From positions 33,483 to 90,330 of the forward strand of contig JBFMCP010000008.1 of NCBI GenBank assembly GCA_040754455.1: a stretch of 56,848 bases of DNA. The letters are read 5' to 3'. The translations under genes and the position numbers were made by a program. The DNA comes from Nitrospirota bacterium (GTDB taxonomy: Bacteria; Nitrospirota; Thermodesulfovibrionia; Thermodesulfovibrionales; Dissulfurispiraceae). Below, in pieces: positions 7,273-27,128 of the stretch (its first letter is position 1; every line of letters begins with the position of its first letter). Below the pieces are notes generated by a model. That model had not been told where the DNA came from, did not search any database, and worked only from the letters and a program-made list of their open reading frames with translations.

Positions 7273-7326
7273 GAAAAAACTGGTGAGCCGTGGAGGATTC
7301 GAACCTCCGACCCGCTGATTAAGAGT
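7273..7326 (+). repeat. att core, left copy (duplicated 3' half of tRNA-Lys plus 8 bp)
   Basis: GAAAAAACTGGTGAGCCGTGGAGGATTCGAACCTCCGACCCGCTGATTAAGAGT identical to 27075-27128. Confidence 0.97.
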
Positions 7327-7483
7327 AGTTTTTGGTAGACACTCACAAGAGCTTGAAAATGCTATTAAACTATTTGCTTTTTAAAGATAATAAGGCTTTC
7401 CGAATTTGCTTTTACCCAAATCCAGCGATAAGCGCTGAATCTGGGTTTTATTTATATACTTTTCCCTTCTTCTTTTCTTGCTT

Positions 7484-7502
7484 TTTTCACAATTTTGTCA
7501 CA
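7484..7502 (+). promoter_or_regulatory. Candidate integrase arm-type site pair (left end)
   Basis: TTTTCACAATTTTGTCACA closely matches TTGTCACGATTTTGTCACA near the right att. Confidence 0.65.
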
Positions 7503-7585
7503 TCCCCTCAGAGCTATACCGGCCGCACATCTGATTACCCCGAAATATTCATTGTTGTTGGCGCAGACGTTAGCAGTTCGTTTAT

Positions 7586-7685
7586 GATAGATGTATCATG
7601 ACCGCTGGCGAGCTCCGGATGCCCGATGCGATAGATGTATCACTCCTGGAGCTGCTGCAGATCCTTCTGGACCGATAGATGTATC
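7586..7685 (+). repeat. Three exact GATAGATGTATC 12-mers with a 44-bp period
   Basis: Copies at 7586, 7630 and 7674 separated by unrelated 32-bp GC-rich spacers. Confidence 0.9.
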
Positions 7686-7750
7686 TTTTGGGGCTGATCC
7701 TCTACCGGGCCGGTCCACCGGCTTCGCTCCTTTCCTAAATCTCCCCCCTG

Positions 7751-7768
7751 TGCTATAATACTTGTATC
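7751..7768 (+). promoter_or_regulatory. Extended -10 promoter of the TA operon with an overlapping operator-like site
   Basis: TGcTATAAT at 7751-7759 overlapped by AATACTTGTATC; GGAGG RBS before 7791. Confidence 0.6.
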
Positions 7769-7790
7769 GCAATTTCAAAAGGAGGGCAAT

Positions 7791-8018
7791 ATGCCTCTTT
7801 CGATAAGATTACCGGAGAAAATAGAAAAGAGACTTAATCGACTGGCCGCGAAGACTGGACGGAGTAAGACCTATTACGTTACCGAGGCTATCATTGAACA
7901 CTTGGGAGATATTGAAGACAGCTATTTAGCTGCAAAGCGCCTCGAAGACGTAATGAAAGGCAAGAGCCGGACCTATACCCTGGACGAAGCGAGGGAAAAG
8001 CTTGGCCTGGACGATTAA
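7791..8018 (+). CDS. RelB-like ribbon-helix-helix antitoxin
   Basis: LSIRLP..RLNRLAAKTGRSKTYYVTEAI RHH, acidic C-terminus, overlaps the toxin gene. Confidence 0.88.
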   Translation: MPLSIRLPEKIEKRLNRLAAKTGRSKTYYVTEAIIEHLGDIEDSYLAAKRLEDVMKGKSRTYTLDEAREKLGLDD

Positions 8019-8271
8019 AATTGAGGACTCTGCATTAAAGGATCTTAAAAAAATTGATAGGACACACGCCAGGCGCATACTCGATTTTTTAGGTCAGCGC
8101 GTGGCAAAGCTCGAAGATCCCCGCAGCATCGGACAGGCTTTAAAAGGTGCCGAGCTCGGTGATTTTTGGAAGTATCGTGTAGGAGACTATCGCATTATTT
8201 GTGATATCCAGGATAACGCTTTAGTGGTCCTCGTTTTACGCATCGGCAACCGGCGCGACATATACCGTTGA
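8002..8271 (+). CDS. RelE/StbE family toxin
   Basis: WKYRVGDYRIIC..VLVLRIGNRRDIY typical of RelE. Confidence 0.92.
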   Translation: MAWTIKIEDSALKDLKKIDRTHARRILDFLGQRVAKLEDPRSIGQALKGAELGDFWKYRVGDYRIICDIQDNALVVLVLRIGNRRDIYR

Positions 8272-8289
8272 GCTGATCGGAGAGAGCAA

Positions 8290-8748
8290 ATGAAAGCTAT
8301 CATGACTTATAAAGGCTATACCGGGTCAGCACATTTCAGCGCAGAAGATAAGGTATTTCACGGCAAGGTAGAAGGGATAAAAGATTTAATCCGCTTTGAG
8401 GGCAGGGACGTTGAAAATCTTAAAGACGCTTTCCATGAGGCCGTAGACGATTACATAGAGCATTCTAGGGCAAAAGGGAGGGAGCCCAAGAGCCCCTATA
8501 GTCTTTCAATATTTCATCCGGCAGCGGCTCAAAGAAGCTCTTATCGATCGCTATCCGTGGATTTCACCAAAATCAGCACTATAGGGTATTTCGTTGCTCC
8601 AACATTTTTGGGGGGAATTGGGACGACTACTTTACCGAAGAAGCGGCGTAATGCAGACAGAAAAAGGAGCAGAAGAGATTTTATTACTTCTGGGCAGGAT
8701 CGAGCACGGAGTATTCTCATAGCAGAATATCCCATCCTTACATCGTGA
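8290..8748 (+). CDS. HicB-like protein, N-terminal domain only with an aberrant C-terminus (possible pseudogene)
   Basis: YKGYTGS..FHGKVEGIKDLIRFEG..FHEAVDDY..PKSPYS is HicB-like, then the sequence diverges; no hicA nearby. Confidence 0.7.
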   Translation: MKAIMTYKGYTGSAHFSAEDKVFHGKVEGIKDLIRFEGRDVENLKDAFHEAVDDYIEHSRAKGREPKSPYSLSIFHPAAAQRSSYRSLSVDFTKISTIGYFVAPTFLGGIGTTTLPKKRRNADRKRSRRDFITSGQDRARSILIAEYPILTS

Positions 8749-8769
8749 GAGAATCATCAAAAATAGAAT

Positions 8770-25105: not shown

Positions 25106-25116
25106 GACGACGAAAC

Positions 25117-25287
25117 ATGATCGATTGTGTAGACATGCTTACAAAGGCACGCATGAAACGGGCCCTTATCAGCGATTATCTCGCCCAAGACCGGGAAAAT
25201 TGCTGCACGCAGGGCATGTTTCTGATCGTCGAGGAGGTTGTGCAAGAGCTGTACGACGTTGAGCGTGTAATAAAAGAAAGATCTTAA
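25117..25287 (+). CDS. Small hypothetical protein
   Basis: 56 aa ORF ending the cargo block, followed by a long hairpin (25312-25366). Confidence 0.45.
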   Translation: MIDCVDMLTKARMKRALISDYLAQDRENCCTQGMFLIVEEVVQELYDVERVIKERS

Positions 25288-25425
25288 TTCAATCTGTGCT
25301 AAATTAAAGAGGCCCTGTGTAGGCCGTAGTCCAATCTGTGGACTCGGTTTCTTGCACAGGGCTTTTGTATAAAGGGCGATATAGGCTATTATAACCCGAT
25401 CTGATCTTGAGCAATCATATATAAT

Positions 25426-25659
25426 CTATACATGACCACGACTAATTGGATAATTGTACTCTTTCCGGTTTTCGCGGCCCCGCTGGTGGTATCGATCCCG
25501 TACCTCTGGCAAATATCTTGTTAAGGTCTCTTCTAAAGCTGCCCTTTTGGACTCTTTACGAGTGGGCAGCCAGGCCGGAGGAGGGCTGCTTGGTCTCGGT
25601 GTAGTGGCCGGAGGCTTTGATAGGCTCTTTGTGGATCCTTCTGTTAAAGCGTTAGCCAT
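25426..25659 (-). CDS. Small ORF divergent from the integrase
   Basis: AGGGAG RBS and TTTACC-N16-TATAAT (extended -10) upstream on the minus strand. Confidence 0.45.
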   Translation of the reverse strand: MANALTEGSTKSLSKPPATTPRPSSPPPAWLPTRKESKRAALEETLTRYLPEVRDRYHQRGRENRKEYNYPISRGHV

Positions 25660-25725
25660 TCTGTTTTCTCCCTGAATTGTTTGCTGTTTTTATTATAGCA
25701 AATAGCGGTCGACGGTAAACAATTT

Positions 25726-25759
25726 TATTGCAGGCACCCCCACCTCCCTATTACATATA
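25726..25759 (+). promoter_or_regulatory. Element promoter-like motif class A, copy 2 (upstream of integrase)
   Basis: TATTGCAGGCACCCCcaCCtCCCTATTAcatata. Confidence 0.7.
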
Positions 25760-25832
25760 TAGGGAGCGAGGCTTGTGTGCTAATATGAAAATAGCATTTT
25801 CAAGCCTTGTGGGTCCCAGGAAAGGAGGTTAA

Positions 25833-26993
25833 TTGAAGATGGGACAAAGCAAGGTTGGAAGAAAAGAGAAATACGATGGCCTATTTCAGCGAGGCAAAAT
25901 TTGGTGGATGTCCGTCTCAGAAAATGGAAAGGCCTACAGGATAAGCACCGGGACAGAAAATAGGAAGCAGGCTGAAGCAATTCTGGCGAAAACGAGAACC
26001 GAAATCATTGAGGGCAGATGGTTTGAGTTTTATGAAGCTCGGAAGCGCACTTTCGACGAAATGATGGTTCGATTCATGAGAGAGCATGCACCAACAGTAA
26101 GCGTAAAAATGCAGAAGAGTTACAAGAACTCTCTTGCTCATCTCGAGGAGTTTTTCTCGGGGCTGACACTGAATAAGATCAACCCGGATTTGATTATGCA
26201 GTATGTTGTGCACCGGAGGGAGCAGACTTGTACCCCTCATTCGGAAGACTGCCAGAAATGCAAGCAGAAGCCCGAAACGGATGACTGCCAAGCTCTCAGG
26301 GAGAAGAGAAAGTGCAGGCCGGGGACTCGCAACCGTGAGCTTGCCATGCTGTCGAAGGCTTTTAACCTGGCCCGGCTCTGGAAGTGGACCAAGGAAAATC
26401 CCTGTGAGCTTGTAAAACGCGAAAACGAGGACAACGAACATATCGGCCAGTGTCTACCGGAGGACAAGGAAAAGGCCCTCCTGGAGCTTTGTAGACCTCT
26501 CTGTAACGGGCAGCTCATTGAGATGGTTATTGTTGCCGTGCATACCGGCTTGCGGGGAAGCGAGGTGCTTGGCATGCGATGGGAAAAGGTCGATTTCAAG
26601 GCGAGATCCATTACTGTCATTCAGAAGGGTAATCGCGTTAAGGTCTGCGCTATGAATGATACTGTCCACAATCTCTTGTCGGAAAAGTCGAAGGTACAGA
26701 GCATATCAGGGTATGTATTTGTGACCTCGAATGGTACGCCCTATATTGCCCGCAACATGTACAGGGAGTTTAAGAAGGTGTGCCGCAAAATTGGAATGCC
26801 CAATTTCCGCTTCCACGATCTCAGGCATACGGTCGGGACAAGGCTGGCACAGGCCGGACACGATCTCTACGCGATAGCCAGCGTGCTTGGTCATAGTCAG
26901 CTTTCGACTGCCAAAAGGTATGCTAAGCATAACGTGGAGAGCCTTCATAGGGTCGTTAAGACGCTTGACAAGAAGGATGGTACTAATGGGTGA
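25833..26993 (+). CDS. Tyrosine recombinase (integrase) with a Cys-rich insertion
   Basis: Arm-binding N-terminus (LFQRGKIWWM..RISTGT), HTGLR, QKG, FHDLRH, LGH, RY catalytic residues; adjacent to att. Confidence 0.95.
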   Translation: MKMGQSKVGRKEKYDGLFQRGKIWWMSVSENGKAYRISTGTENRKQAEAILAKTRTEIIEGRWFEFYEARKRTFDEMMVRFMREHAPTVSVKMQKSYKNSLAHLEEFFSGLTLNKINPDLIMQYVVHRREQTCTPHSEDCQKCKQKPETDDCQALREKRKCRPGTRNRELAMLSKAFNLARLWKWTKENPCELVKRENEDNEHIGQCLPEDKEKALLELCRPLCNGQLIEMVIVAVHTGLRGSEVLGMRWEKVDFKARSITVIQKGNRVKVCAMNDTVHNLLSEKSKVQSISGYVFVTSNGTPYIARNMYREFKKVCRKIGMPNFRFHDLRHTVGTRLAQAGHDLYAIASVLGHSQLSTAKRYAKHNVESLHRVVKTLDKKDGTNG

Positions 26994-27004
26994 TCTCAGG
27001 TTGA

Positions 27005-27024
27005 TTTGTCACGATTTTGTCACA
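27005..27024 (+). promoter_or_regulatory. Candidate integrase arm-type site pair (right end)
   Basis: TTTGTCACGATTTTGTCACA tandem repeat 50 bp inside att. Confidence 0.65.
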
Positions 27025-27074
27025 ATGCGTTTTTTAAGAGGGTATGAAGTGGAATCTTACGGTTACAACTTGTT

Positions 27075-27128
27075 GAAAAAACTGGTGAGCCGTGGAGGAT
27101 TCGAACCTCCGACCCGCTGATTAAGAGT
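27075..27128 (+). repeat. att core, right copy
   Basis: Identical to 7273-7326. Confidence 0.97.

Follow-up and report, generated by a model that had tools for sequence, protein, structure and literature searches.

In this study, we analyzed a 56,848-nucleotide window of the Nitrospirota bacterium contig JBFMCP010000008.1 (assembly GCA_040754455.1) and found that a 19,856-bp segment of it, at positions 7273–27128, is very probably an intact integrative mobilizable element (IME) that carries its own relaxosome and type IV coupling protein (T4CP) and borrows the mating channel of a helper element. This reading is drawn from the att sites, the gene identities, the nic and iteron motifs, a family of related elements and the absence of channel genes, all read from sequence. 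Taking the definition of an IME (iMOB) from the available part of PMC11389934, we find at the sequence level an integrase with att sites, an own relaxase with an oriT motif, and no mating-pair-formation (MPF) system. An earlier sequence-only reading of this DNA had proposed an IME that encodes a coupling protein but lacks a mating channel. Our results support that proposal and further suggest that the missing channel is a family trait rather than recent damage, because the MPF-less layout recurs across att-bounded relatives.

The element is flanked by direct repeats of 54 nt that are 100% identical, exactly where the sequence-only reading had placed them, and each corresponds to the 3' part of tRNA-Lys(CTT) plus 8 nt. 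This tRNA was the sole Rfam match in the window. Most of the gene identities proposed earlier also held: curated cut-offs were exceeded by the integrase (PF00589) and excisionase (TIGR01764), whose genes lie 14 kb apart, the RelBE pair (NF048017; TIGR02385/PF05016), the MOBF relaxase (PF08751; NF041492, with AAA_30), the TrwB-like coupling protein (PF10412) and ParM (PF17989, PF21522). The core open reading frames (ORFs) are all intact. One genome of the same genus, G001, was searched; at this tRNA it has a different islet, 3 kb long and with genes of toxin-antitoxin type, and the gene next to that islet is 84% identical to a gene on the left side of our element, so the site is an insertion hot spot. 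The host carries a second integrative element (G000:C6, about 13000–25400) at tRNA-Thr(CGT), with its own Xis and an integrase 41% identical; a PF10412 search found no match in it. The same tRNA-Thr(CGT) is the target of the MOBF family members in genomes G036 and G016.

The transfer genes run in one direction, from mobF to the genes past oriT. The relaxase retains Tyr14, Tyr19/20, and its HUH and helicase motifs, with Asn in place of the motif II Asp. Its start, previously read as ATG 12302, is corrected here to GTG 12356. A loss of the first catalytic Tyr was considered and ruled out, since Tyr14 aligns with the conserved Tyr. All plasmid matches to the relaxase fall below 60% identity (27–28% among the matches listed), and a relaxase pattern scan of the genome and viral contigs found no match. 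The oriT proposed earlier is supported by a predicted nic motif that occurs once in the host genome; among related loci, 9 of the 16 regions that precede the gene for the ribbon-helix-helix (RHH) accessory protein contain its 12-mer without a mismatch, and a looser form is present in 22 of 28 loci. The motif resembles what we take to be F- and N-type (MOBF) nic sites, and for this reason we infer a nick on the minus strand between 16248 and 16247. The RHH protein is assigned by position, and its positional equivalent in locus L032 matches NikA-like PF21983 (E 7.2e-7). The T4CP is the sole coupling protein copy in the host assembly. A reading of the small gene C7 as a Ti-plasmid TraC was unsupported, since only 1 of 13 small pre-T4CP proteins touches PF07820, and that under the cut-off. 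In relatives, a small conserved gene absent from the window, C5, often lies between relaxase and oriT, at what would be the leading end (L027:8098-8448, L022:524-865, L030:11365-11745 and others); it looks OB-fold or SSB-like and has no Pfam match.

A search for relatives, suggested with the earlier reading, uncovered a family of such elements in the Nitrospirota. TrwC relaxases occur in 10 of 60 genomes of the same taxonomic family, and coupling proteins at E <1e-60 in 22 of 401 genomes of the phylum, the host included. We compared 15 elements chosen for having relaxase and coupling protein on one contig, leaving out contig pieces and broken loci. Matches to xis were found in all of them, to int in 13 and to the nic motif in 14, whereas a full MPF gene is missing from every one. 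Att repeats of 40–44 nt bound five relatives (G036, G016, G050, G191 and G336), which are 15–24 kb long and lie at tRNA-Thr, -Ala (two), -Pro and -Arg, four tRNA types other than tRNA-Lys; for the remaining elements, no repeat pair was found in the stretch examined. Core genes are conserved, with pN of 0.27–0.46 against near-saturated pS of 0.73–0.92 in all six rough pairwise comparisons. In the T4CP tree, the window falls in an unresolved group where ParM-positive and ParM-negative rows are mixed. Both trees omit G045c, G092 and broken genes, and the relaxase tree is a quick tree.

Replication and partition genes vary across this family. The window's Rep cluster is present in 4 of 15 elements, of which G036 has a truncated copy and G050 a distant type. 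Another 4 carry RepA, either alone or together with RepC (G002, G016 and G027 among them; the RepC label comes from position and look, with no Pfam match), and no replication module was found in 7. ParM occurs in 4 of 15, there within the coupling-protein operon, and only the window has Rep and ParM on one contig. Two of the closest relaxases, in G037 and G052 (56 and 53% identical), belong to genomes with Rep-MOBF and ParM-T4CP on separate contigs, which may form one element each, since their ends fit. Rep type and ParM are thus swappable modules; relaxase, nic and T4CP make up the family's invariant core.

In PHROGs, the window's Rep is similar to replication initiators (E 2.6e-14 for the best named one and E 9.5e-6 for an O-like one), and a Rep pattern scan of the genome and viral contigs found no relative. 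Within the rep gene lie three iterons with 16-bp spacing (10888–10938), followed by the most AT-rich 40-mer of the gene. In phage lambda, iterons followed by an AT-rich tract lie inside the initiator gene O, and the earlier idea of a lambdoid-type origin stands as far as initiator, internal iterons and AT-rich tract are concerned. The same layout, judged by eye, is present in L023, L030 and L037, that is, in 3 of 6 other rep genes.

The claimed ParM/ParR pair stands firmly for ParM, whose nucleotide-binding motifs are intact and invariant across 33 close homologues and which matches the ParM of pCBH (E 2.9e-9). The adjoining ORF, which overlaps the end of parM and is kept downstream of it in 10 loci, is probably ParR, a reading that depends on position and weak fold likeness. 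The best Foldseek row for its model is pB171 ParR at E 4.5, below significance; a wide structure search returned mainly RHH proteins at Z 3.5–4.6; two ParR chains were among the matches of these searches, all of them weak; and a family profile run against PDB sequences found no match. Like type II ParMRC systems (pCBH ParM, 6ixw; Ta0583, 2fsj; pB171 ParR, 2jd3), the window combines an actin-fold ATPase with a small, possibly RHH-like gene and candidate centromere repeats upstream. It differs in that neither score for the likeness to ParR reaches significance (Foldseek E 4.5; Z 3.9) and in that the pair sits inside the transfer operon of an integrated element.

That location raises the possibility that ParM and ParR serve conjugation more than inheritance, moving the circle to a helper channel or to the cell pole. 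ParM lies between oriT/RHH and the T4CP, or right behind the T4CP, in the window, L083, L084, L093, L094/L095/L178, L177, L182 and L097/L099/L104; both elements of G247 have an unrelated ParM (25–26% identical) at this position; and in L178 ParM/ParR occur although Rep gave no match there. Most close loci have the pair within or beside the coupling-protein operon. On the other hand, the 11 of 15 elements that have no ParM match keep the same transfer genes, close ParM homologues in L096, L179, L180 and L181 have no T4CP nearby, and srpMRC of SXT, which also lies among transfer-related genes, acts in stability (available part of PMC4489591). We consider a conjugative role unlikely but worth keeping in view, and it would be compatible with an IME that borrows its channel. 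In L179 (8665-13647), a ParM/ParR pair 47% identical to the window's lies between a Replic_Relax relaxase gene and xis-int; this is a second type of small integrative element with the same partition module.

Profile searches of both element and host bear out the earlier statement that VirB4, pilus and capsid genes are missing. Three family-library scans of 29, 26 and 24 window proteins gave no match to any of them, and the host assembly (100% complete, 92 contigs) had no match to PF03135, PF19044, PF03743 or PF11130, a search that an unbinned plasmid would escape. The concern that the hypothetical genes might form a full MPF, making the element a true integrative and conjugative element (ICE), was not borne out by these profiles. 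The family-less ORFs span 58–362 aa, too short for VirB4, and lack Walker A motifs, which a scan of the element placed in the relaxase and coupling protein, with one further, chance-like match in the ParR linker. Of the 15 elements, 9 gave no match to any of 14 MPF queries, and the window is one of these; the other 6 gave nothing beyond pieces of 22–89 residues; TraC, TraU, TraK, TraG, TraH and TraN had no match in the window. The SGI1 family lacks a canonical relaxase. Substitutes of the SGI1 type for TraN, TraG and TraH were not found in the compared elements, and the window carries a MOBF relaxase.

Candidate helpers do exist among relatives of the host. VirB4-type genes are present in 13 of the 60 same-family genomes, including 5 of the 10 with a TrwC relaxase, and never on the same contig as the latter. 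The candidate regions comprise F-type MPF clusters (G027, G081), a MOBH system (G056), and VirD4 with a Replic_Relax relaxase and pilus ATPases (G036, and by clustering G029 and G026). A MOBF relaxosome is not expected to fit the coupling proteins of such helpers, which may be why the element retains its own T4CP. The element's family-less proteins had no match among 214 proteins of these regions. A side observation from conjugative regions of related genomes is a second gene for RpoC (beta-prime) between a Replic_Relax/VirD4 pair and a ParM-like gene (L051:3864-7142 in G036:C12, L061:1361-4672 in G026:C4, and L054/L055 in G029:C18), with further cases at G045:C115, G010:C18, G060:C3, L127, L187, L188, L192 and L247. 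The extra copies in G036 and G026 are ~1,100 aa long, keep the NADFDGD catalytic motif, and share 49–53% identity with the chromosomal RpoC that is also present. An ICE-borne beta-prime might enter the host RNA polymerase; if it does, this could exceed the present finding in interest.

A different explanation for the missing channel is that transfer does not depend on VirB4, with export through the element's own exported proteins (C6, C12, C13, C24) or a pilus or secretion system of the host. The host and two single-contig genomes (G191 and G336, each with an att-bounded member) carry the element with no VirB4 (PF19044) match, exported proteins recur behind the T4CP (C13 in 4 of 15 elements and C6 in 7 of 15), and the host encodes PilB/PilT/GspE-type ATPase homologues. 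Yet the exported genes are not universal, with G029, G145 and both G247 elements lacking all of them, and helpers, which are frequent in the family, need not reside in the cell but only pass through it. To our knowledge, no MOBF/TrwB system works without an MPF, and we regard this explanation as improbable. One of these exported proteins, the secreted C13, belongs to a family of 38 proteins, the window's included, encoded mostly downstream of the coupling protein. Searches with Atlas, Foldseek and VIA-align gave no meaningful fold match, with residues before 216 barely covered; the best structural Z, 8.2, concerns the C-terminal three-helix bundle alone. These results do not allow C13 to be identified as an MPF subunit, nor its fold to be described as new. 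Were export of this kind real, the element's T4CP would be using uncharacterized exported proteins or host pilus machinery. A bolder version, a phylum-wide MOBF/TrwB family independent of any VirB4-type helper, with a sigma-driven operon, actin-based delivery of the circle to the T4CP, and export through C13-like proteins or the host pilus, strikes us as very improbable.

The element might instead be a decayed ICE, once self-transmissible, that recently lost its MPF and is now dying. Loss of MPF is the commonest path from conjugative to mobilizable plasmids (available part of PMC9185392), G336 and G092 encode an F-like TraI of 1956 aa, an F-type tra operon in L101 begins with the gene for a 38%-identical ParM, and some family members are broken (the relaxase of G036 and the coupling proteins of G215 and G026). 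Against this, the window has no MPF remnants and its core is intact, and different families of the phylum share the compact layout without MPF, with relaxases as little as 30% identical. The comparison of 15 elements already largely refutes recent decay, which we hold to be very doubtful; an ancient origin from an F-like element is likely. Least credible of all is that the element is a PICI-like phage satellite, which a helper phage would package and in which the conjugative genes would be passengers, for, although the family's left arm (cI, sigma-like factor, phage-type Rep, Xis) resembles a phage early region, PHROGs gave no terminase, capsid or packaging match among 24 proteins, Rep has no relative among viral contigs, and relaxase, nic and T4CP are invariant while Rep is swapped for RepA/RepC or missing.

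Regulation of the element may involve a sigma-like factor and a shared promoter-like motif (A-tract plus hexamer), both new in this analysis; the ORF at 10018 was absent from the gene list of the sequence-only reading. This ORF encodes a sigma70-like factor, which we propose to be an activator. Its Atlas feature scores were 0.95–0.97, with Sigma70_r2 clusters among the matches, its family profile gave weak matches to ECF sigmas spanning regions 2–4 (E 0.017–0.034), and its relative in L030 exceeds the cut-off for Sigma70_r4_2 (E 3.5e-10). The promoter-like motif, copies of which end at 16448 and 17346 in the window and which also precedes xis in G027, G052, G191 and L178, may be read by this factor; a scan for sigma70 consensus promoters was at chance level (16 vs 18.7). 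A 37-nt repeat (81%) at 9916–9952 and 25726–25762, upstream of the sigma-like gene and of the integrase, is a possible shared promoter or operator.

Several observations weigh against an intact, helper-dependent IME or against parts of this account. No helper was found in this host assembly, and the co-occurrence of helpers in related genomes is only suggestive because these kin are not independent. Library scans found no match to a lambda-P or DnaC helicase loader, rep being followed by xis; in this, and in its lack of phage structural genes, the window differs from a lambdoid replicon. The Asn at the position of F TraI Asp81 is shared by a relaxase subclade (window 12356–12700, L022, L023, L024 and L025), whereas sister relaxases in G191 and G336 retain Asp; in the three subclade members whose nic is known, the two bases that follow the predicted nick are identical. 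For F TraI, the D81A mutant is active with Mn2+ and barely with Mg2+ (available part of PMC5030251), and a literature search found nothing on TrwC Asp85. The parC-like 8-nt motif is present in at least two copies in 7 of 10 ParM-positive and 0 of 10 ParM-negative segments, two pairs of which are near-duplicates, but it was drawn from the ParM-positive set in which it is counted and is absent from the other 3 of the 10. Similarly, the promoter-like motif was observed 38 times against 9.5 expected in shuffles of the 15 elements, and 4 times against 0.4 in the window (2 of 4 in front of genes), in counts that include the regions upstream of RHH and C7 from which it was drawn; 3 of 15 elements lack it. 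No cI-type repressor was found in the window, and a divergent cI-type gene lies beside the sigma-like gene in four relatives (G027, G036, G037 and G052). Finally, four public runs, searched as contigs only, gave no att joints, and the depth of element contigs was not above that of their flanks (X1, 61.9 vs 69.7 and 70.3; X2, 27.8 vs 39.4). Missing joints and flat depth are weak evidence because a joint that runs through a repeat of 54 nt cannot appear in contigs and because the window may itself derive from these two runs. The same samples contain a second integrase allele with 47 differences in 558 nt, which shows a related element there. The earlier suggestion that the element lives both integrated and as a plasmid thus stays an inference, with no joints, no raised depth, and Rep and ParM not travelling together; outside the chromosome, the element most likely exists for a limited time after induction and does not lead a standing plasmid life.

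Taken as an IME with a borrowed channel, the element could work as follows. The sigma-like factor would activate the operons that share the promoter motif, namely xis, RHH and C7-parM-parR-T4CP, and Int with Xis would cut out a 19.8-kb circle. Rep would open the origin within its own gene and host helicase loading would allow transient theta replication, with relaxase-driven rolling-circle copying, as in SXT, as a possible fallback. ParR may bind the upstream repeats and ParM filaments push the copies apart, RelBE acting as a back-up. The MOBF relaxase and RHH protein would nick oriT, and the element's T4CP would dock the relaxosome onto the MPF of a helper whose own relaxase and coupling protein are of another class. 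In the recipient, Int would insert the circle into tRNA-Lys.

Comparison with known systems, for which the cited papers were available in part, shows that the element is built from known modules, and no new mechanism is demonstrated. The MOBF IMEs of Mesorhizobium (IMEMl R88B-like traACD; IMEMsp.M2A.F.02-2; PMC8627217) share tRNA integration, a tyrosine integrase, MOBF, the lack of MPF and an RDF gene coupled to the relaxase gene, and those that lack traACD carry a virD4-like T4CP. They differ in phylum, in that most have Ti-type traACD, with traA divergent from traC/traD across oriT where the window's genes are co-directional, and in that the available main text, supplementary tables aside, describes no Rep or ParMRC. 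SXT/R391 with SrpMRC (PMC4489591) is likewise integrated, and its excised circle is stabilized by replication, actin-type partition and toxin-antitoxin, SrpMRC contributing to this; unlike our element, SXT is self-transmissible by an F-type MPF of its own and replicates by its relaxase, whereas the window has no MPF, a MOBF relaxase and a separate phage-type initiator. SGI1, GISul2, IncP islands, Tn6104 and streptococcal IMEs share initiators and toxin-antitoxin genes, and some have T4SS parts of their own (PMC5704250). The available part of that 2017 review covers IMEs with phage replisome organizers or RepA/RepC initiators and the strategy of an own relaxase and coupling protein, but no MobF IME, an own VirD4 only with MobC, and ParB as the sole partition gene. 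The literature already describes each of these features separately: IMEs of the MOBF class, IMEs that encode a coupling protein of their own, phage-type and RepA/RepC initiators on IMEs, and ParMRC on an ICE. The earlier impression of an unrecognized combination survives in that our literature search, with subscription journals mostly outside it, found no description of the Nitrospirota family or of ParMRC on an IME; with its parts individually in print, the element is less unusual than was thought.

These findings suggest that the family is a common, so far unnamed vehicle of gene flow in the Nitrospirota, and they extend actin-type partition from ICEs to IMEs. The natural swaps among its members, in replication (phage-type Rep, RepA/RepC or neither), in partition (with ParM or without it) and in one relaxase residue (Asp or Asn), may reveal what an excised hitch-hiker needs to persist. 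The predicted nic site, origin, centromere and promoter motif are each directly testable.

Table 1. Features of the element in window coordinates, with the basis of each assignment
Feature	Position	Strand	Basis
att site	7273..7326		54-nt exact repeat, duplicate of tRNA 3' end
relB promoter region, arm 1 of 24-nt perfect inverted repeat	7740..7763	+	repeat search
RelB antitoxin	7791..8018	+	NF048017 E 9.5e-30
RelE/ParE toxin	8002..8271	+	PF05016 E 4.6e-19; TIGR02385
HicB-like ORF, residues 1-71 alone matching	8290..8748	+	phrog_9151 E 7.9e-24
85-aa ORF, no family match	8770..9027	+	library scans
Phage-type/ECF-like sigma70 factor, proposed activator	10018..10554	+	Atlas feature search, family profile, relative
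Phage-type replication initiator Rep, O/DnaD-like N-terminal domain	10547..11350	+	PHROGs
Putative origin within rep: three iterons, then AT-rich tract	10888..10988	+	repeat search
Excisionase/recombination directionality factor (RDF; Xis)	11431..11739	+	TIGR01764 over cut-off
Family gene C6: one membrane helix and coiled coil	11732..12067	+	present in 7/15 elements
Small membrane ORF	12064..12351	+	ORF list
MOBF relaxase-helicase, 1243 aa	12356..16087	+	TrwC PF08751, MobF NF041492, AAA_30 helicase
Intrinsic terminator-like hairpin 3' of mobF	16135..16165	+	hairpin
Predicted oriT core: conserved nic motif and hairpin	16248..16271	-	motif comparison
RHH relaxosome accessory protein, TrwA/NikA-like	16499..17017	+	position
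parC-like repeats, three copies of 8-nt motif	17150..17251		motif search
72-aa Cys-rich ORF, first gene behind promoter-like motif ending at 17346	17371..17589	+	
Family gene C7, 58 aa, upstream of coupling protein	17531..17707	+	9/15 elements
ParM-type actin-like ATPase	17720..18691	+	ALP_N PF17989, MreB-like_C PF21522
Probable ParR adaptor: beta-alpha-alpha N-terminus, linker, C-terminal helix	18688..19017	+	position, weak fold scores
TrwB/TraD-type coupling protein (T4CP)	19032..20864	+	TrwB_AAD_bind PF10412 E 2.9e-99
Three small ORFs: 118 aa; CxxC protein (21325-21528); secreted C12 protein (21655-22137)	20949..22137	+	
c7-type multiheme cytochrome, cargo	22191..22550	+	TIGR04257 over cut-off
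Two exported proteins (22576-23241 and 23294-23974)	22576..23974	+	no family match
Family gene C13: conserved secreted 362-aa protein	24017..25105	+	model pLDDT 81.5
Tyrosine integrase	25833..26993	+	PF00589 E 3.2e-30; phrog_1 E 1.6e-61
att site within intact tRNA gene	27075..27128		54-nt exact repeat
tRNA-Lys(CTT), integration target	27083..27158	-	tRNA call, Rfam

The left arm holds several minor features. The HicB-like ORF behind relE is probably a remnant. Positions 9028–10017 form a stretch of ~1 kb with no convincing ORF, a 33-nt repeat at 9100 and 9346, and several hairpins; it gave no Rfam match and almost no DNA match among the fetched related loci. The second arm of the 24-nt perfect inverted repeat that begins in the relB promoter region lies at 10041–10064, antisense, inside the start of the sigma-like gene, and a search of the fetched relatives found no copy of the repeat. 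In a related element, a gene between tRNA-Lys(CTT) and xis encodes a fusion of an HTH_3 repressor domain with a SpoU rRNA methylase domain (L095:297-1103 and L178:4045-4851).

The cargo cytochrome of c7 type has paralogues of 37–48% identity on four other host contigs, and relatives of the element carry a chaperone-usher pilus cluster and an Rhs-repeat protein as cargo (L094:6427-10370; L104:8111-12058).

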